Assembly (NCBI GenBank): GCA_020429915.1
Contig: JAGQKV010000018.1
Span: 69,770 to 133,769, forward strand
Direction: 5' to 3'
Source of the DNA: Candidatus Omnitrophota bacterium
GTDB lineage: Bacteria; Omnitrophota; Gorgyraeia; Zapsychrales; Zapsychraceae
Length of the DNA: 64,000 nucleotides
The notes beneath the pieces are model-generated. The model made no database searches and was not told where the DNA came from. It saw only the letters and a list, made by a program, of their open reading frames with translations. The position numbers and the translations under genes were made by a program. Positions 6,422 to 55,244 of the stretch are shown one piece after another. The first letter of the stretch is position 1, and each line of letters opens with the position of its first letter.

Positions 6422-7627
6422 CTAAAAAAGTTTGGCCAGTTGTCTGGCGTTCTTGGCGATATCGAATTCTCTTTCTATCCGCTCCCGTCCCCGCGTCGCC
6501 AACCGCGCGCGCAGGTCTTTATCGGAAAGCAGATGCCGGATCTTGTCGGCCAGCACATCCACATCGCCGGGTTCGGCCAGCAATCCGGTCTGCCCGTCGA
6601 TCACGAGCTCAGGTATTCCCGAAATGCGTGAAGCCACCGCCGGCGTGCCTACCGCCAGGGCCTCCATCAGCACCAACGGGATACCGTCCTGGCCGTCGGC
6701 GTCGTCCCACACCGAAGGCACGGCGAAGATGTGCGCCTCCTTGATCCGTTTGCGGACCTCCGCGCTGTCGAGGACCCCTTCCAGGACGACGCGCCCCTCC
6801 AATCCGTATTCCGCGATCAGTTGCTCAAACCGGGGCCGCAGATCGCCGTCGCCTACGATATGACAGCGAAAGTCGTGCTCATTCTTGATCAGGTTCAAAG
6901 CATGGATAAGATTCTCAAACCCCTTCATCTGGGTCAACCGGCCTACGCACACGATAGACGGCGGATGATGCCCGTTGGGATGCGGATGGTAATCCCACTC
7001 GGACAGGTCCAGTCCGCAGTGGACGATATGGATTTTGGGAAGGATGTCTTCACCGCAATGTTCGGCCAGATAGCGCCGGTTGTATTGCGAAATCGTGGCA
7101 ACGGCCTTGGCCGCCTCAATCTTCTCGCGCAACAGGGTCTTGTCGAGAAAGATGTCGTGGGCGTGGGTGGTCAGCGTGTATTCGATCCCGGTGAGCTTGG
7201 ATATCACGGTGGCTACCAGGGCCGGATAAGTGGCGAAATGTGCATGGAGGTGCTTCAAATCCTCCTCCCGTGCCAGTTCGGCAAAGTAAGCGGCGACCAG
7301 CACACACCAGATATTCTTGTGAAATATACGAACATTGCCGAGACTGGCCGACATGACCTTGAGAGTCCACGGCACAAGCACCCCCGGTTTACGCAGCAGC
7401 CACCGGAAATAGGACAACACCATCCCACCTACCTTTATATAGTGCGTACGGGACAGGTAGGGTTTTGCCTTTTCCTGAGTGTATTTCTCCAAGTCATTAC
7501 GGATGGAGAAAATGGTGATGTCGTAGCCGGCCTTGCTCAGCTCGATGATTTCATTGAGAATAAAGGTTTCCGACCAGCAGGGAAACAGCGATACCACATA
7601 TCCGATTTTTTTCTTTTTTGCCTTCAT
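6422..7627 (-). CDS. glycosyltransferase family 4
   Basis: 401 aa; ..FAVPSVWDDADGQDGIPLVLMEALAVGTPAVASRISGIPELVIDGQTGLLAEPGDVDVLADKI.. Confidence 0.8.
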   Translation of the reverse strand: MKAKKKKIGYVVSLFPCWSETFILNEIIELSKAGYDITIFSIRNDLEKYTQEKAKPYLSRTHYIKVGGMVLSYFRWLLRKPGVLVPWTLKVMSASLGNVRIFHKNIWCVLVAAYFAELAREEDLKHLHAHFATYPALVATVISKLTGIEYTLTTHAHDIFLDKTLLREKIEAAKAVATISQYNRRYLAEHCGEDILPKIHIVHCGLDLSEWDYHPHPNGHHPPSIVCVGRLTQMKGFENLIHALNLIKNEHDFRCHIVGDGDLRPRFEQLIAEYGLEGRVVLEGVLDSAEVRKRIKEAHIFAVPSVWDDADGQDGIPLVLMEALAVGTPAVASRISGIPELVIDGQTGLLAEPGDVDVLADKIRHLLSDKDLRARLATRGRERIEREFDIAKNARQLAKLF

Positions 7628-14416: not shown

Positions 14417-14827
14417 CTAATTCGCTTCCCGTCTTAAATACTCAAATCCCCCGAAAAGACAGAGTTTCTCGACCATACCCCGCCCTTCCTCAAACATTTT
14501 CTGAAAGTAATCCGCTGTCACGTAATTCCACTGCCTTGCGATGTACAGTTGGGCGATAGTTTCGTGGACCGCCTCCACGGCATTTCTCAAGCATGACTCC
14601 AGTGCGTGTTGGGACCGGCTGCGGGAGGCCTTGGCCACCCGATCGGCGATCCGGACGGAGGACGCCAGGATCTTATCTTTCAGACCGCGCTTGGCATCAT
14701 CCGGCATGGTGACGGCGACGCCGTTGATCCGGTTGATGAACTCGACCGCTTCCTTCCATACATCCAGGGTGTCCCGGCGAAGAGAGGGATCAAAACGGCT
14801 GAATTGTCGGTCGTTGATGGAGTACAT
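14417..14827 (-). CDS. hypothetical protein, possible four-helix-bundle protein
   Basis: ORF track 14417..14893; ATG at 14827 sits 1 nt after the stop (14829) of the upstream ATPase gene. All-helical prediction from composition; weak resemblance to TIGR02436-type four-helix-bundle proteins. Confidence 0.35.
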   Translation of the reverse strand: MYSINDRQFSRFDPSLRRDTLDVWKEAVEFINRINGVAVTMPDDAKRGLKDKILASSVRIADRVAKASRSRSQHALESCLRNAVEAVHETIAQLYIARQWNYVTADYFQKMFEEGRGMVEKLCLFGGFEYLRREAN

Positions 14828-18184: not shown

Positions 18185-18524
18185 AACCCGGACAATGCCG
18201 GTCATCAAAATACTACGACTCATAAACATATGCAGTAGAAAGGTTTGTAAGGAAGGTTGAAACAAAAGCAGAAAAGATTGGACTTCACCTGTGTTTCTCG
18301 ATGTTTAAAAGAATAAACATTACAGTCCCGGACACACCCGGACACACTCGGAACGGCGTATTATATCAACAACTTACGGCAATGTCTATTTTTATCACCA
18401 TCCGCCGCCCCCTCCAGAATTGCAAGAAAAGGCATTTTAGAGCGATCCTGGCACTCCTGTCTAATATAGGTCTATAAATTAATAGAATTTGTAAATAATA
18501 ATCATTGTGGTATACTTTTTGCGT

Positions 18525-19898: not shown

Positions 19899-20163
19899 CG
19901 TCTCCCCTTGGACCGGAACCCATCAACAGCGGATAGTGTTCAGCGAACAGCGGCAAGTGCTCATGTTTGAGATACGCGTACCTCTGGCATTTAGCGGTGA
20001 GCGGCTGGCGGCGAGTGTTCAAGACGTACCTTCCGGGATTAGAATCGGGCGGATAGTCACCGGAGAAGAGTTTGGCGGCTAATTTCTCTATTCCCGGAGC
20101 CCACGACCATCTGACCGCTGATCCCTGTCTGGTCTCTAGCCGCTGGACGCTGTCCGCTGAATC

Positions 20164-22133: not shown

Positions 22134-23054
22134 ATGGTAAACCATACCATATGCGGACTGAAGCTGTCCACCAAAGATTTGCATCCCTCACGCGGGCGTG
22201 ATAAACTCTTGGAAATTTACCCCTTTAATCTGTCGAACCGGGAGGCGCGCGTGCCCACGATTGACGAAAATAAAAAGAATTGGGAAGACTATCACTGGGA
22301 TACCCACGGCGACATATGGTCCGAGGGCTGGGGCACGGTAGATATGCAGTGGTACGGCACCTTGCTCCCCCGCCTGCATCAGTTTGTCCCGGCCGGAACG
22401 ATCCTGGAAATCGCTCCGGGTTATGGGCGCTGGACCCATTATCTGCAGAATTTAGGTGATAGTATTATCATCGTGGACCTCGTGCAAAAGTGTATCGAAT
22501 ATTGTCAGGAACGATTCCGGGAATCAAAAAATATATCCTATCATGTCAATGACGGAAAATCCCTGGCCATGATTCCAAACGGCAGCGTCGATCTAATCTT
22601 TAGTTTTGACTCACTTGTTCACGTCGAAGAAGATGTTATCCAGAATTACATAGGGGAGTTTGCTCGAGTCCTCAAGCCCGGTGGGTATGGCTTTATCCAT
22701 CATTCCAATCTTGGAGAGTATGCGGATTATTTCAAATTCGTGGATAAACTGGCATTTGCTCATGATGCCCTATACCGTTTGCGGCTAATAGATCATTACA
22801 AGCATTGGCGCGCCTCCAGCATGACGGCCGACAAATTCGACCGTTTCGCCTCAGAAGCGGGTCTGCAAGTCCTAACGCAAGAAAAAATCAATTGGGGCCG
22901 GTCTCTGCTGATTGATTGTATCAGCACTTTCACTACTAAAAATGCTCCCCACGCTCGAACACGACGGGTTATCGCCAATCCGCACTTTCGTCGCGAGTCC
23001 GACTATCTGAGGGACCTGAGCGGGGCGTATCAGCTTACCGACAAGCAGAAGTAA
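22134..23054 (+). CDS. class I SAM-dependent methyltransferase
   Basis: 306 aa; motif I ..ILEIAPGYGRW.., ..VLKPGGYGFIHHSN..; a GTG at ~22251 preceded by GGGAGG may be the true start. Confidence 0.65.
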   Translation: MVNHTICGLKLSTKDLHPSRGRDKLLEIYPFNLSNREARVPTIDENKKNWEDYHWDTHGDIWSEGWGTVDMQWYGTLLPRLHQFVPAGTILEIAPGYGRWTHYLQNLGDSIIIVDLVQKCIEYCQERFRESKNISYHVNDGKSLAMIPNGSVDLIFSFDSLVHVEEDVIQNYIGEFARVLKPGGYGFIHHSNLGEYADYFKFVDKLAFAHDALYRLRLIDHYKHWRASSMTADKFDRFASEAGLQVLTQEKINWGRSLLIDCISTFTTKNAPHARTRRVIANPHFRRESDYLRDLSGAYQLTDKQK

Positions 23055-23099
23055 CTACGTTCCGATTGATTTGCTCCCAGCATGAACGGCGACCTAACA

Positions 23100-23200
23100 G
23101 GGTGATGAGTGATGATCCGGTCCGTGTCCGGGGGATGATTCTTCCGGTGCGTGGAATGCACCAAATACGACCACTACTTACCGCCCATCACTCATCACCC
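23100..23200. repeat. palindromic repeat element copy A (15-bp perfect terminal inverted repeat GGGTGATGAGTGATG / CATCACTCATCACCC)
   Basis: Intergenic between convergent genes; arms 23100-23114 and 23186-23200 are exact reverse complements; related copies at 23262-23400 and 32672-32769. Confidence 0.6.
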
Positions 23201-23261
23201 TATAATCCTATTGCCCGTCAATATCCGATATTCTGGTGACTATGGGACTGGTCACAAGGGT

Positions 23262-23400
23262 GGTGAGTGCTGTAGCCGGGCAGTACACTTAGTGATGAGT
23301 GATGATCCAGTCCGCGTTTGGATGATGATCCCGATTGTGCTTGGAAAGCGCCTCATACGACCATCACTCACCTCCCATCACTCATCACCCTAATGTTCTC
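23262..23400. repeat. palindromic repeat element copy B (tandem to copy A)
   Basis: Shares GGTGAGTGCTG, AGTGATGAGTGATGATCC, CATACGACCATCACTCACC and CCCATCACTCATCACCC blocks with copies A and C; nested inverted repeats. Confidence 0.6.
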
Positions 23401-23407
23401 TTGCCAG

Positions 23408-24571
23408 TCACCATCCAATCAGCTGCCGGCTGCGGCGCGGGAAAGTCCTGCGAATCGCGGCGGCGATGAGAAAAGCGCCGGCACCGATCACCACCGTCCA
23501 TCCCCCCCACATCACGATACCCGGCAGCTGATGGAAAAGCGGCAGGTCCGTCAGGCCGGATTTCTTAACGGCCAGGATCAGTACCGGATGCAGAAAGTAC
23601 ACCGCGAAGCTGGCGGCGGCCAGGGTCTTCAACCACGGCCAGTTCCGGTACTCGAACCGGTTGAGAAATACGTAGAAAAACAGGCAGCCGAGCATCTTTT
23701 GCACGAGATTGATGTCCAGCCCGGCCCAGACCAGGGCCGGTTTGTGCATATTGGCATATTCTGGATACAGCATCACCTGCTCGAGGGACAACGCCAGCAT
23801 CATCAGGGCGATCACCCACTCCTTGCCGGTCAGGTGCTTGATCACCGCGGCCCGGTCCAACGACACGCACATCCCCAATAGATACACCGGCAGGTAATAG
23901 ACCACCGCCTGCACGATCGCGATATTATGCACCGGCCGGTGGATGAGCATGGCGATCAGCAGCGCCCCGCCCAGGCCCGCCAAACGCGCGCGGCGCGGCA
24001 GGGTCAGATAATTCAGGAACAACGGCGAGAGCGCGAAGACGATCATGATAAACGGAATGTACCAGTAGGCGTCGAAAAGCCGGCCGGTACTCAGATAATT
24101 CCACGCCGGCAACAGATAATCGGCGACCACCCCCGTCCCCGCCGTATACATCAAATCCGCATGCGGCCCGCCCTGGCGGATGCCGACGTAATAAATTACC
24201 AGCGGCGTGCAGACGACCAGGTACGGCATGAGGACGTTGCCGATCTTCTTTGACATAAAGCGCCGGTAGTTAAAATTGCGGCTGAAGATGTGGTGGAACA
24301 GGAATCCGGAGATAAAGACGAAGAACGCGGTCCCGCCCTTGACGAGGTTGACGATCACCTTTTCGTAGGCCGCGTCGGTGTGCCAGCCGGCCAAGGTAAA
24401 GGCATGCCCGGCAACGATAAAAAGAATCGCCAACCCGCGGAAGTAATTCAACGAATTAAGATAGACCGGCTTGCGGGATTGCGGTTCGGGGACCGAATCC
24501 ATCCGCTGCTGCACCGCCGGCGGAACGGGGTCCAGTGAAGACTGTTGGGTATTTTTGTGATCAGATTCCAT
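23408..24571 (-). CDS. acyltransferase family 3 membrane protein (O-acyltransferase, OpgC/OatA-like)
   Basis: 387 aa, ~10 TM; N-terminal ..LNSLNYFRGLAILFIVAGHAF.. typical of Acyl_transf_3. Confidence 0.6.
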   Translation of the reverse strand: MESDHKNTQQSSLDPVPPAVQQRMDSVPEPQSRKPVYLNSLNYFRGLAILFIVAGHAFTLAGWHTDAAYEKVIVNLVKGGTAFFVFISGFLFHHIFSRNFNYRRFMSKKIGNVLMPYLVVCTPLVIYYVGIRQGGPHADLMYTAGTGVVADYLLPAWNYLSTGRLFDAYWYIPFIMIVFALSPLFLNYLTLPRRARLAGLGGALLIAMLIHRPVHNIAIVQAVVYYLPVYLLGMCVSLDRAAVIKHLTGKEWVIALMMLALSLEQVMLYPEYANMHKPALVWAGLDINLVQKMLGCLFFYVFLNRFEYRNWPWLKTLAAASFAVYFLHPVLILAVKKSGLTDLPLFHQLPGIVMWGGWTVVIGAGAFLIAAAIRRTFPRRSRQLIGW

Positions 24572-27880: not shown

Positions 27881-28001
27881 CAGCCAACAAAAAAACAGCG
27901 ACAGACGCCAATTACCCAAGGGAATCCATTTGTTAATTGGTATCTGTCCCTGTTTTCTTATCCCTGTCTCGTCTCTAACCGCTGGCCGTTTAGCGCTGCT
28001 T

Positions 28002-30395: not shown

Positions 30396-30438
30396 CAAAA
30401 AAAATCCCCTTGGTGAATCATCACCAAGGGGATTTTGC
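30396..30438. terminator. bidirectional rho-independent terminator (15-bp perfect stem AAATCCCCTTGGTGA / TCACCAAGGGGATTT, loop ATCA, flanked by A8 and T4)
   Basis: Between convergent genes 29644..30291(+) and 30467..31327(-); on the minus strand the hairpin is followed by an 8-U tract. Confidence 0.7.
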
Positions 30439-31578: not shown

Positions 31579-32631
31579 TCAGCGCCATCCCCTCGCCTCC
31601 GCTTCCCGCAGCAGGCGCTCATACCCGGCCTTATTCCGGCCGTTTTCGTCCCGCAATCCCAGTGTTCCCAAAAATTCCCGGAAATGCGGCTGGTTCAGGC
31701 CGTAGTACTCCTCCCATACGTCCAGCTGAGATTCGGACTGGTCGTTCATCCAGGTGAATTCCATATACTCGATCCGGCCGGCGTAGCGATCCCACATGCG
31801 AAAGGCTTCACTGATAAATCGGGCCTGTGCGACCTGGGAACTGCCCAGCTCCGCCCCGGAGGGATAGCCGATTTCCATCACATAGACCGGCTTCTCCGGG
31901 TAGAGCGCGGTCAACTCGGCAAAGGCTTTATGAACCGTGTCCGGGGCTTCCACGCTAAAATCCTCATTGAGCGGATAATAGGTGACCATGACCACATCGG
32001 CGTGCCGGTTGATACGCTGGAATTCCGCGGCAAACCGTCCGGTCAATCCGGCCATCATTCCCTTGGTCCCGACACGCAGACCGGGCCAGAAACGGCGCGC
32101 GTATTCGGCGGTTGCCTTGAAGAATTTCTCATAGGCCGTCCATTCTTCCGGGCTTTTCAATACCCCGTCAATCTCATTACCGATGGTCAGCGAATTCAAT
32201 TCCAGCGCGCTGACTTCCATCAGGGCGAAATCGAGGAGCCGCTTGTAGCGCTCAATAACCTCGGGATCGTCCCAGGAACGGCCGCGCAAGTCCTCAGGCA
32301 GACGGACATTGACCGTATCGATCGGATTAATGCCCAGCGAAAGAATCAGGCCAGTGCCGACATAATAACGGTTCGCGATTTTGAGAAGATTCGGGCGCGG
32401 CCGGAAGACGCCGGGAGCGGTTTCGAGGTCATCCCAATTTTGCGAAAGACTGACGGCCATAATCCCCGCTTGCTGCGCGTCGGACAGGGCCTGATCGTAG
32501 CCGACGGCATCCGTTTCATTGACGGACACCGACAAGATACGTTTTCCGCGGAGAACCGGATTCTCGGCCCATACGGCCGAACCCGGAAGGACGGTCAAAA
32601 AGAGCAAGCTTATCAGCAGCTGCGGACGCAT
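31579..32631 (-). CDS. secreted glycoside hydrolase, clan GH-A TIM-barrel (GH5/GH113-like)
   Basis: 350 aa; signal peptide MRPQLLISLLFLTVLPGSAVWA; acid/base ..SLTIGNEID.. and nucleophile ..VYVMEIGYP.. motifs. Confidence 0.55.
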   Translation of the reverse strand: MRPQLLISLLFLTVLPGSAVWAENPVLRGKRILSVSVNETDAVGYDQALSDAQQAGIMAVSLSQNWDDLETAPGVFRPRPNLLKIANRYYVGTGLILSLGINPIDTVNVRLPEDLRGRSWDDPEVIERYKRLLDFALMEVSALELNSLTIGNEIDGVLKSPEEWTAYEKFFKATAEYARRFWPGLRVGTKGMMAGLTGRFAAEFQRINRHADVVMVTYYPLNEDFSVEAPDTVHKAFAELTALYPEKPVYVMEIGYPSGAELGSSQVAQARFISEAFRMWDRYAGRIEYMEFTWMNDQSESQLDVWEEYYGLNQPHFREFLGTLGLRDENGRNKAGYERLLREAEARGWR

Positions 32632-32671
32632 GATGGGATTATACCGGAAGCGCGGGCAGGGGGCAATAAAT

Positions 32672-32769
32672 GGGGATTGAGTGATGTGTGGTGAGTGCTG
32701 AGTGATGATCCGGAAAGGCGACCACCGTACGGAATACGATCATCACTCAGCATCCACCACTTAATCCCC
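32672..32769. repeat. palindromic repeat element copy C (same family as 23100-23400)
   Basis: GGGGATTGAGTGATGTGTGGTGAGTGCTGAGTGATGATCC ... GGAATACGATCATCACTCAGCATCCACCACTTAATCCCC; imperfect ~35-bp inverted arms around central CCGTACGG. Confidence 0.55.
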
Positions 32770-33162
32770 TCACGCGGGCAAGTACGGATTCAGAATATCA
32801 TAGACGCTCAGGACATACTCGATCACACGATGAGCCTGACGCGGAGTGATGCGATCCTCAACACAACCGGCCTTGATTCGGCAGTCATGCGCGATAATCA
32901 TACGGCTCAGACCTTCAACCACACCGTCGTCGATGTAGACGATTTCCTGCACTTTCTTCAACAAGGCCACGCTGCCCAGGTCATAGGGCTGGACATCGTA
33001 GAAGGCCAAGAAGCTCAAGGTCAACTCGTCCAGAGCCATCAGGCTTAACTTGTACACCACCTCGGGTGTCACCAGCTCCGTCCCGTTGTCTCCGTGGATC
33101 ATTCCGAGATAGCCGTTCACTTTTTTGTCGTGTTCATCCTGGTAGGTCATCTTGGTGTCCAT
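32770..33162 (-). CDS. hypothetical protein downstream of hoxH
   Basis: ORF track 32770..33339 overlaps hoxH; ATG at 33162 with AAGGAGG Shine-Dalgarno 6 nt upstream gives MDTKMTYQDEHDKKVNGYLGMIHG.. (130 aa); no recognisable family; not a HoxW-type protease. Confidence 0.4.
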   Translation of the reverse strand: MDTKMTYQDEHDKKVNGYLGMIHGDNGTELVTPEVVYKLSLMALDELTLSFLAFYDVQPYDLGSVALLKKVQEIVYIDDGVVEGLSRMIIAHDCRIKAGCVEDRITPRQAHRVIEYVLSVYDILNPYLPA

Positions 33163-33236
33163 GGCATGCCTCCTTGTCGGGACCGGCGTTATCCCTTTTG
33201 AGCGTAAAACCGGTCGGTGGGAGGACGCAAAAGGGA

Positions 33237-54426: not shown

Positions 54427-54819
54427 CTAGATCCGGGCGGCAATTGCGCGCTCAATGCGCAAAGATTCCGCCTCGTCCCCGAAGGTCCCCAGACGAATCT
54501 TGATCTTGGAAGCCTTAAGGGTCAGAGATTCGATCGTGATCTTGATGTGCCGGCCGTCGGGGTGTTTGGCGTTGATCTCGGATCCCTCCTGTCCCAGATC
54601 CTCACTGACGATCATCGCGCCGATATCCTGGCGCAATGCATCCAGGGCGGCACCGTGTAATTCGGCGTAGTGGGCGTCGACGTTCTGTTCCAGCGCACCG
54701 GTGACATACGCGTATCCGCCGACTCCGACGGCAGCACCGGCCACCAGCATGCAACCCTGAGCGCTGGCAACCGTCACCCCCAGTAAAACTGTCCTTACCC
54801 ATGAATTCGTGGATCGCAT
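54427..54819 (-). CDS. small secreted/lipoprotein, tandem paralogue 1 (glycine-zipper GxxxGxxxG)
   Basis: Start MRSTNSWVRTVLLGVTVASAQGCMLVAGAAVGVGGYAYVTGAL..; ~60% identical to downstream paralogue. Confidence 0.55.
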   Translation of the reverse strand: MRSTNSWVRTVLLGVTVASAQGCMLVAGAAVGVGGYAYVTGALEQNVDAHYAELHGAALDALRQDIGAMIVSEDLGQEGSEINAKHPDGRHIKITIESLTLKASKIKIRLGTFGDEAESLRIERAIAARI

Positions 54820-54854
54820 ACGGTATCCTTTCCGGGATGAGGCAGGCCGCATCC

Positions 54855-55244
54855 CTACAAGCGGTTCATGGTCGCGTTTAAGATGCGCAGAGACTCAGCT
54901 TCATTACCGAACGTCCCGTAACGGATCTTGATCTGTGCCGCCCGTTCCGTGAGGGCCTCGATATCGATCTTGATGGTCGTTCCGTCCTCACTCTCGGCAT
55001 GAATATCCGCGGACGACTGGCCGATCGATTCCTTGACCACAAATGCACCGATGTCACGCAGTCCGTCCAACGCCGCCGAATGAACGTCGGCATAATTCGC
55101 GTCCACGTTCTTGGCCAGCGCACCGGTGACATACGCGTATCCGCCGGCCCCCACCACCGCTCCGGCCACCAGCATACAACCTTGAGCGCACATAACGGTC
55201 AGGCTCAACAACGCCAACGACAACAAACTCGTAAATCTTTTCAT
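54855..55244 (-). CDS. small secreted/lipoprotein, tandem paralogue 2
   Basis: MKRFTSLLSLALLSLTVMCAQGCMLVAGAVVGAGGYAYVTGALAKNVDANYADVHSAALDGL..; same architecture as 54427..54819. Confidence 0.55.
   Translation of the reverse strand: MKRFTSLLSLALLSLTVMCAQGCMLVAGAVVGAGGYAYVTGALAKNVDANYADVHSAALDGLRDIGAFVVKESIGQSSADIHAESEDGTTIKIDIEALTERAAQIKIRYGTFGNEAESLRILNATMNRL

Follow-up and report, generated by a model that had tools for sequence, protein, structure and literature searches.

ERIC (or IRU) elements of enterobacteria are imperfect palindromes of ~100 to 130 bp that occur only in intergenic DNA that is transcribed, and many of them occupy orthologous sites. They are conserved more than expected for intergenic DNA, occur in low to moderate copy number, and have no known transposase. 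REP units are imperfect palindromes of 20 to 40 bp, two of which, inverted around a spacer, make up a REPIN, with tens to hundreds per genome. One end of the REP unit is marked by a conserved tetranucleotide, GTAG or CGTC (PMC3733652), and roles in mRNA stabilization and termination have been proposed for REP, BIME, and REPIN sequences (PMC3116915, PMC2817692, PMC3733652). Other repeats are built from heptamers: inverted heptamer arrays are known with the unit GGGAATC in Xanthomonas, GGGGA(C/T)T in Nostoc, and as STRR sequences in cyanobacteria (PMC4692102, PMC4679880), and TAACTGA repeats occur in Beggiatoaceae, Cyanobacteria, and Bacteroidetes (PMC4679880). [quoted passage not shown] Here we compare with these systems a set of intergenic palindromes in a stretch of 64,000 nucleotides (the window) from a Candidatus Omnitrophota bacterium.

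One palindrome family with arms of tandem heptamers

Copies A, B, and C (Table 1) belong to a single family, that of imperfect palindromes with arms made of tandem heptamers. Each element consists of four 15-nt boxes, GGGTGATGAGTGATG, with two heptamers per box, ordered → → ← ← around a variable loop; the box itself is non-palindromic, and the loop between boxes ranges from 26 to 71 nt. The alignment of copy B with its orthologues from three other species is clean and runs from the outer-left box, GGGTGATGAGTGMTG, through a variable bulge of ~18 nt, the inner-left box, the variable loop, and ATACGA to the inner-right and outer-right boxes. Copy A is the counterpart of the inner half of B only, the outer-left box being absent, and its arms, AGGGTGATGAGTGATG (23099-23114) and CATCACTCATCACCCT (23186-23201), form a perfect inverted repeat of 16 bp. 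A and B make up a direct repeat whose period is 190 nt (23102-23229 versus 23292-23419), 77% identical over 128 nt, with identical arms (17/17 and 17/17) and an interior that matches at 46/67 positions. Copy C has an inverted repeat of 23 nt with 91% complementarity; the palindrome is built of five heptamers (GGGGATT GAGTGAT GTGTGGT GAGTGCT GAGTGAT) plus their complement and gives a lag-7 score of 17/21.

Table 1 Features of the window and orthologous copies in related genomes (contig named in the position cell where it is not the window)
Feature	Position	Strand	Description
Element D	19927-20161	.	235-nt palindrome; arms of tandem CAGCGGN-type heptamers; lag-7 score 15/21
Copy A	23099-23201	.	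103-nt palindrome; 16-bp terminal inverted repeat; two small internal hairpins
Right flank of copy A	23202-23241	-	Degenerate version of the right flank of B, including a pseudo acyltransferase 3' end
Copy B	23258-23392	.	Full-length form with nested symmetry; covariance model 109 bits
Copy B, outer-left box	23258-23272		
Copy B, 18-nt bulge	23273-23290		
Copy B, inner-left box	23291-23308		Followed by the variable loop
Copy B, conserved ATACGACC	23355-23362		
Copy B, inner-right box	23363-23372		
Copy B, outer-right box	23376-23390		
Canonical bidirectional terminators	27890-27950 and 30401-30436		At the other two convergent junctions
Promoter-like TTGCCC-17-TATAAT of GH-like gene	32638-32666	-	Immediately downstream of copy C; context, outside the repeat
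Copy C	32672-32769	.	98-nt palindrome, 9.3 kb from A/B
Copy B orthologue	L071 6330-6452		
Copy B orthologue	L073 2968-3088		
Copy B orthologue	L074 1630-1748		

All three copies (3/3) are intergenic and lie 0 to 44 nt from a stop codon. A and B, at locus 1, are flanked by convergent genes for a SAM methyltransferase (22134-23054, + strand) and an Acyl_transf_3 protein (23408-24571, - strand). Copy C, at locus 2, directly follows the TGA of a gene of 130 aa, itself downstream of hoxH, and its end is 5 nt from the -35 of the next gene's promoter. A protein sequence identical to the methyltransferase of locus 1 is present on a 527-kb ENA metagenome contig and in 75 assembly blocks. The window's GlnRS shares 99% identity with a protein of a Candidatus Omnitrophica MAG, and Omnitrophota proteins follow as the next relatives.

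The relationship among the copies goes well beyond chance. A 17-mer core, allowed up to 3 mismatches, has 5 matches in the window against 0.23 expected, and 0/100 shuffles reach 5. The only three period-7 arrays reported by TRF in the 64 kb (23291-23305, 23362-23388, and 32678-32708) are all inside B and C. A, B, and C are connected by nhmmer, and a covariance model built from copy B and the three orthologues only, with A and C left out, finds copy C at 45.2 bits (E 2.6e-9) and copy A at 44.7 bits (E 3.6e-9). The same model gives no match besides A, B, and C in the 64-kb window and none beyond the orthologous site across ~77 kb from relatives. These results confirm the observations of a preliminary description of this DNA, which had reported two adjacent elements between convergent genes and a third copy at 32672-32769 as a palindromic intergenic repeat family with an internal heptamer direct repeat. 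The coordinates, sequence, and neighbors of the adjacent pair agree, B (23258-23392) contains every block that had been named, the third copy is recovered by the model, and the family occupies two separate loci. The inverted repeat of A, described as perfect and 15 bp long, is indeed perfect but one base longer.

The hairpin potential that had been proposed was also found on folding both strands, with energies from -47 to -54 kcal/mol for A, B, and C on either strand. The z-scores of A and C range from -4.1 to -7.3, the last value being that of copy C, and those of B from -1.8 to -2.3. The structure that RNAalifold predicts for the four orthologues has two coaxial helices (16 and 17 pairs) and a 2-pair helix in the loop; in copy C, 4 pairs of the outer helix are compensatory. 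Folds of single sequences come out equally well on either strand, with no consistent preference. In the consensus structure, which was derived on the + strand, G-U cells exceed A-C cells 17:1 on that strand, a bias that may reflect the way the consensus structure was picked.

Does the element encode something of its own? A structured noncoding RNA or small-peptide gene (an sRNA, a riboregulator, or an ORF of 32 to 44 aa) would fit the + strand bias of the consensus structure, an ATG-started frame that is open in A and B (MSDDPVRV...), and a TTACCG-17-TATAAT-like site over the right arm of A, seen by eye and not flagged on scanning the sequence. Followed by eye as well, the frame stays open through A, B, and L071 and is closed at codon 9 in L073, and L074 meets the ATACGA block in a different frame, which indicates that no peptide is conserved. 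We found no conserved promoter, and Rfam at the gathering threshold returned no match, its best subthreshold scores being 12.5 bits for sR28 (threshold, 39) and 22.5 for sR5 (threshold, 40). The C/D-box and miRNA hits in Rfam are chance-level matches caused by UGAUGA, and the K-turn RNAs that this motif would suggest also gave no match at the gathering score. We consider a gene of this kind very unlikely.

Several narrower identities were discarded as well. ACCTAAC to the left of A fits the RYYYAAC of an integron attC site, but it has no GTTRRRY partner and no cassette array. A SECIS after the TGA that abuts copy C would have no counterpart in A, B, or D, and the protein would gain no more than two codons from read-through. 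Mimicry of the 16S rRNA 3' end by TGATCCAG and CACCTCC in B was dropped since these sequences are not conserved in the orthologues. A link to the gene for a PF05635 four-helix-bundle protein (14417-14827) was dropped because the flanks of that gene have no heptamer arms.

Persistence, local duplication, and loss of copies

Copy B is the ancestral form of the element at locus 1. Its orthologues in three other species, one element each, lie just past the acyltransferase stop codon, and this common position in species whose acyltransferase is only 66 to 68% identical to that of the window (L071, L073, and L074) indicates vertical inheritance. The convergent neighbor in these species bears no relation to the methyltransferase gene of the window. 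The homology between A and B begins at the inner-left box of B and runs at least 27 nt past the inverted repeat, into a flank in which a pseudo acyltransferase C terminus and stop codon can still be read (SHQNIGY*, compared to SRQLIGW* at the real end). The two flanks are identical at 18/27 positions, and only 1 of 63,913 27-mers in the window is equally similar. Since the homology extends into this pseudo gene end, A is a segmental duplicate of B, and two separate insertions are ruled out. What is visible is a long evolutionary persistence of the copies at their sites and an increase through local segmental duplication (B giving rise to A) rather than through cut-or-copy transposition with defined ends.

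Persistence is accompanied by replacement and loss among relatives. The closest relative at locus 1, L070 (84% identity), is without both the methyltransferase and the element, and a cupin gene directly follows its acyltransferase. L072, the sister to L074 (77% protein identity), carries at the same site a palindrome with an inverted repeat of 26 nt, of which the left arm consists of GGGAYNN-type heptamers (GGGATGT GGGACGA GGGATTG GGGACGA) and the right arm of their complements. The arms stay complementary and heptad-periodic despite wholesale heptamer replacement. Re-insertion or gene conversion could account for such replacement at fixed sites. At locus 2, copy C is present in the identical strain (L077), is reduced to a degenerate, non-palindromic remnant in L075 (GH-like protein 73% identical), and is missing from L076 (69% identity), where the sequence is unrelated, meaning that the element is dispensable. 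The promoter of the GH-like gene is kept in L075, L076, and L077, with TATAAT conserved in L075 and L076. In L057 (91 to 95% DNA identity over aligned blocks), copy C was lost within a 1.5-kb deletion that took two genes too. Comparison of L057, L070, L075, and L076 yielded no clean empty site, since the indels of L057 and L070 span whole genes.

Is the family a mobile one nonetheless? The preliminary description had likened it to REP/BIME or MITE elements. In a non-autonomous element of the REPIN or MITE kind, a transposase encoded in trans (RAYT or other) would recognize the GTGATGA boxes, copy the hairpin into intergenic DNA, and keep the arms conserved. This would fit the two unlinked loci within 64 kb, arms that are conserved without covariation as at a protein recognition site, the graded state of locus 2 (intact in the window and L077, degenerate in L075, absent in L076), the different heptamer families at the same junction in related genomes, and similar GTGATGA hairpins in a Pirellulales MAG, a Lac Pavin MAG, and an IMG/VR viral contig. 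Terminal inverted repeats, as in MITEs, are present in A (16 bp, perfect) and C (23 nt, 91%), but the copies have no common discrete termini: A is without the outer-left box, C has different outer arms, and the A-B homology passes the inverted repeat into unique flank and the 3' end of a gene. Nor do the flanks of A, B, C, and the orthologues in L071, L073, and L074 share a direct repeat, so that the target-site duplications to be expected of insertion are lacking at all six copies. B is stably orthologous in four species, and the indels in L057 and L070, each spanning whole genes, do not expose a clean empty site. The repeating unit is a 15-nt non-palindromic box ordered → → ← ← rather than the palindromic unit of a REP, and a GTAG tag is found in only 2/6 copies (the outer-left box is followed by TGTAG in B and L071, the tag reads GTAC in L073 and GTAT in L074, and A and C are without it). 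A search for a cognate RAYT gene had been suggested; Pfam results from our own scans and from precomputed gene calls, which cover almost every one of the 47 long ORFs in the window, revealed no transposase or RAYT domain above threshold. Finally, 0/185,579 species representatives (the source genome is not among these, and the pattern is too strict for the orthologues) contain two or more exact 17-mer cores. Without shared termini or a consistent GTAG, with a non-palindromic box, and with B inherited vertically, the assignment to REP/BIME or MITE-like elements is not supported, and we regard a mobile element as unlikely, if still with an appreciable chance.

Searches outside the window gave little more. 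The exact 17-mer has 54 single matches in the 185,579 species-representative genomes, mostly coding, compared to ~70 expected by chance in a rough estimate. A pattern of the 17-mer with a gap and GATGA has 7 matches in JGI metagenomes, again coding for the most part and in no case from the source organism; both collections are without the source genome. These scans set no bound on copy number, because the patterns are so strict that orthologues with GTGATGGGTGATGAT would be missed. BLAST of the A-B region found no match in phage and plasmid collections.

Sequence constraint on the arms and heptamer palindromes elsewhere

Between species, the stem columns of the B orthologues are 83 to 93% identical and the unpaired columns of the element 26 to 57%. 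In the adjacent acyltransferase gene, codon position 3 is 47 to 57% identical and position 2 is 82 to 93% identical. The GTGATGA-family arm sequence is thus held as tightly as second codon positions. L071, L073, and L074 all carry GTGATGGGTGATGAT in place of the exact 17-mer core. Only 1/35 stem pairs covaries among the four orthologues, so structure alone is insufficient to explain the conservation of the stems. Near-invariant stems next to near-saturated third positions and loops imply that the arms are constrained in primary sequence and not by pairing alone. The likeliest cause of sequence conservation without covariation would be a trans-acting reader that recognizes the arms by sequence, a putative additional factor to which the alternative is family-wide gene conversion.

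Could the palindromes be a neutral by-product? Heptamer slippage and template-switch inverted duplication might make and homogenize functionless palindromes in permissive 3' intergenic DNA. This is consistent with a general enrichment of lag-7 arrays, both here and in all foreign contigs with a GTGATGA hairpin, with the wholesale replacement of heptamers at fixed positions, and with the similar behavior of the Xanthomonas and Nostoc heptamer repeats, for which no function has been found (PMC4692102). However, the arms are held like second codon positions next to third positions and loops of their own that are near saturation, and template switching evens out the arms within an element but cannot stop their joint drift between species. 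We consider such an origin distinctly unlikely.

Constraint on sequence could also arise at the DNA level, if the four-box array (→ → ← ←) were bound by a dimeric or tetrameric protein such as a regulator of exopolysaccharide genes or a nucleoid or replication-associated factor. Sequence conservation limited to the four 15-nt boxes with variable spacers would agree with this, as would folding that is equally good on both strands. Against it, the boxes are at gene 3' ends rather than promoters, their spacing spreads widely (loop of 26 to 71 nt), copy C lies in the unrelated context of a hydrogenase operon, and L072 swapped all boxes yet kept the palindrome. A DNA-binding array therefore has a slim chance in our judgment.

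Copies A to C are one instance of a wider phenomenon of heptamer-periodic palindromes in this lineage. Element D, between convergent sigma-54 and Exo_endo_phos genes, is of the same class as A to C and of a different sequence family, and at the same junction L070 has an AT-rich heptamer palindrome unrelated to D. Within the window, three intergenic regions stand out by their period-7 autocorrelation, namely, both the A/B and C loci and 19899-20163. Among 47 intergenic regions from the window and the loci of nine relatives, 7 have a lag-7 score of at least 14/21, compared to 0.43 in shuffles and 1 to 2 for each other lag from 4 to 11. GTGATGA hairpins also occur in the Pirellulales MAG, the Lac Pavin MAG, and the IMG/VR viral contig, and two Bacteroidia-like contigs (L031 and L068) have GTGATGA arrays as direct repeats around a small hairpin. 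Each of these five contigs (L009, L022, L031, L068, and L078) has further lag-7 arrays and none at lag 5, 6, or 8. A broader proposal is that GTGATGA heptad hairpins of Omnitrophota, Planctomycetota, other MAGs, and a viral contig represent an unrecognized, widespread class of cis-elements that a conserved sequence-specific factor reads, combining stops in all frames with a hairpin as insulators at gene ends, and that heptamer palindromes come from a dedicated generative mechanism, not passive slippage; we hold this to be quite improbable.

Possible role at gene 3' ends and relation to described repeats

What might the elements do where they stand? The window has four convergent junctions, of which two have heptamer palindromes and two have canonical terminators (A-run, hairpin, and T-run). 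The junction type, heptamer palindrome or terminator, is the same in the relatives L070 and L076. A scan for terminator-like sites called none in 19899-20163, 23055-23407, and 32632-32769, and the arms are not followed by a T-run on either side. These complementary junction types, the place of copy C between a stop codon and a promoter, and the high stability on both strands suggest that the most likely role of the elements would be that of bidirectional RNA hairpins at gene 3' ends without canonical terminators. Our overall explanation, an in-place family of heptamer palindromes that may act in this way, is a tentative one to which we give somewhat less than an even chance.

In either of the two converging transcripts, the element would fold to give a hairpin of about -45 to -55 kcal/mol, which may end or insulate transcription at junctions without a canonical hairpin-plus-U terminator and may shield the transcript against 3'-exonucleases there. 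The 5' arm would offer UGA codons from either side, in two frames with two heptamers and in all three with three. The arms themselves could be generated and homogenized by heptamer slippage and intramolecular template switching (quasipalindrome correction). The preliminary description had raised structured terminators or insulators between convergent genes; this part of it is plausible and is the reading favored here, whereas a canonical terminator with a U-tract is not what the elements are. Against a terminator or insulator role, the elements have no U-tract and are not flagged by a simple scan, and L070 and L076 do without the element at loci 1 and 2, respectively.

If bidirectional hairpins are indeed the role of the family, it would show how transcription is ended or insulated, at junctions without canonical terminators, in a candidate phylum that has no cultured model, and it would extend the heptamer-repeat phenomenon from cyanobacteria, Xanthomonas, Beggiatoaceae, and Bacteroidetes to the PVC-related Omnitrophota. 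Of most use as a lead is the tight conservation of the arms with almost no covariation, which points toward a putative trans-acting reader. The elements also mark indel-prone spots in a surface-polysaccharide locus, and sequences of this kind can mislead gene callers and repeat-based annotation of mobile elements.

How do the elements compare with known systems? They share with bidirectional intrinsic terminators the genomic niche and a stable hairpin on both strands but have no flanking A-run or T-run and, at 100 to 235 nt with internal bulges and side hairpins, are much longer. Like REP, BIME, and REPIN sequences, they are extragenic hairpin repeats at gene 3' ends, with long hairpins formed from inverted units (PMC3116915, PMC2817692, PMC3733652). 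Unlike REP and REPIN sequences, they have a non-palindromic box, no consistent GTAG or CGTC, an order of → → ← ← instead of paired palindromes, two loci found within 64 kb, and no RAYT in the window. The resemblance of A to C to ERIC/IRU lies in imperfect palindromes at intergenic and orthologous sites; there is no sequence relationship, and ERIC arms are not heptamer-periodic. With the heptameric arrays (PMC4692102, PMC4679880) they have in common tandem heptamer units, a strong intergenic bias next to an ORF, convergent inverted arms able to form stem-loops, and the same positions in relatives with varied sequence and length (L072 versus L074; element D versus L070). They differ from these arrays in having only ~2 to 5 heptamers per arm, a fixed four-box architecture with the conserved non-repeat core ATACGACC, an arm sequence conserved across species, and a host among the Omnitrophota. 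The GTGATGA-family heptamer cannot form a G-quadruplex, whereas the L072 variant could. The family is therefore new in sequence, in a poorly known phylum, and of a kind already described, that of heptamer-based, ERIC/REP-like intergenic palindromes.

Element D and the convergent junctions

A fourth palindrome of the window, element D, has heptamer-periodic arms (CAGCGGA TAGTGTT CAGCGAA CAGCGGC) that differ in sequence from those of the GTGATGA-heptamer copies A to C. The same junction in L070, a relative's locus, is occupied by an AT-rich heptamer palindrome (7211-7344) unrelated to element D. Upstream of the sigma-54 gene, the intergenic region between divergent genes contains a period-10 tandem repeat (CCCGGACACA, 2.6 copies, 18327-18352). 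Canonical bidirectional intrinsic terminators, consisting of an A-run, a long hairpin and a T-run, were found at the other two convergent junctions and in the relative's locus L076; the perfect 16-bp palindrome AAAATCCCCTTGGTGA/TCACCAAGGGGATTTT is one of these.

Features of the window and of other contigs, with their coordinates
Feature	Location	Strand	Remarks
PF05635 (23S rRNA IVP/four-helix-bundle) gene	14417-14827	minus	within exopolysaccharide cluster
Element D, 235 nt	19927-20161		between convergent sigma-54 and Exo_endo_phos genes
Bidirectional terminators	27890-27950; 30401-30436		other two convergent junctions
Bidirectional terminator	L076 5973-6031
ORF of 2800 aa	39792-48194	minus	several WD40/beta-propeller regions
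ORF of 682 aa	56558-58606	minus	porphobilinogen deaminase + tetrapyrrole methylase + uroporphyrinogen-III synthase
ORF of 1524 aa	59205-63779	minus	AcrB-type RND transporter (ACR_tran) + outer-membrane efflux protein (OEP) domain
Lag-7 (tandem period-7) arrays	L078 1853-1901, 2121-2210, 5201-5239, 5441-5476, 8415-8451
Heptamer arrays/motif	L031 3713-3901, 4881-4933 and elsewhere

Gene content and rearrangement

The exopolysaccharide locus is rearrangement-prone. L070, the closest relative with the acyltransferase found beside copy B, lacks the SAM methyltransferase gene (window 22134-23054; L070 5146-5252), and its contig instead has IS3-family transposase ORFs (HTH_Tnp_1 and rve) upstream. 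The PF05635 gene, which has an AAA ATPase gene on one side and a ParA-like gene on the other, is not flanked by heptamers.

Around copy C, comparison with L057, a close Omnitrophota MAG with 91 to 95% DNA identity in aligned blocks, revealed a 1.5-kb indel (window 31702-33233 versus L057 5520-5571), so that L057 lacks copy C, a 130-aa gene downstream of hoxH and the greater part of the 350-aa GH-like gene. The GH-like protein has an apparent N-terminal signal peptide. In the promoter of its gene (32631-32643, minus strand), just 6 nt separate TATAAT, conserved in three species (window, L075 and L076), from the ATG, suggesting from sequence that the mRNA is leaderless.

Elsewhere, the fusion of ACR_tran and OEP in a single ORF is unusual, and two further large ORFs encode a triple fusion of tetrapyrrole enzymes and a giant protein. 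A 145-nt direct repeat (54632-54776 and 55057-55201, 76% identical; region 54427-55244) is not a non-coding repeat but corresponds to two tandem DUF3568 paralogue genes.

Heptamer arrays outside the window

The putative viral contig L078 (IMG/VR) contains six lag-7 arrays within 10 kb, one of them a GTGATGA/GTTGTGA palindrome 4 nt beyond the stop codon of a gene and immediately ahead of the ribosome-binding site of the following gene. Several intergenic regions of L031, a Bacteroidia MAG, are filled with long tandem arrays of the heptamers GAGTTAC, GAATTAC, GAGTTAT and TCTTGAC, and its motif GTGATGA GTGATGA TCC/small hairpin/ATGAATGATGAG, which follows a stop codon, is shared with another Bacteroidia-like contig, L068. 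The arms of a variant element in the relative's locus L072 (1319-1470) hold four G3 tracts at 4-nt spacing, which could allow one strand to fold into a G-quadruplex; the heptamer repeats of Xanthomonas and Nostoc are likewise G-quadruplex-capable.
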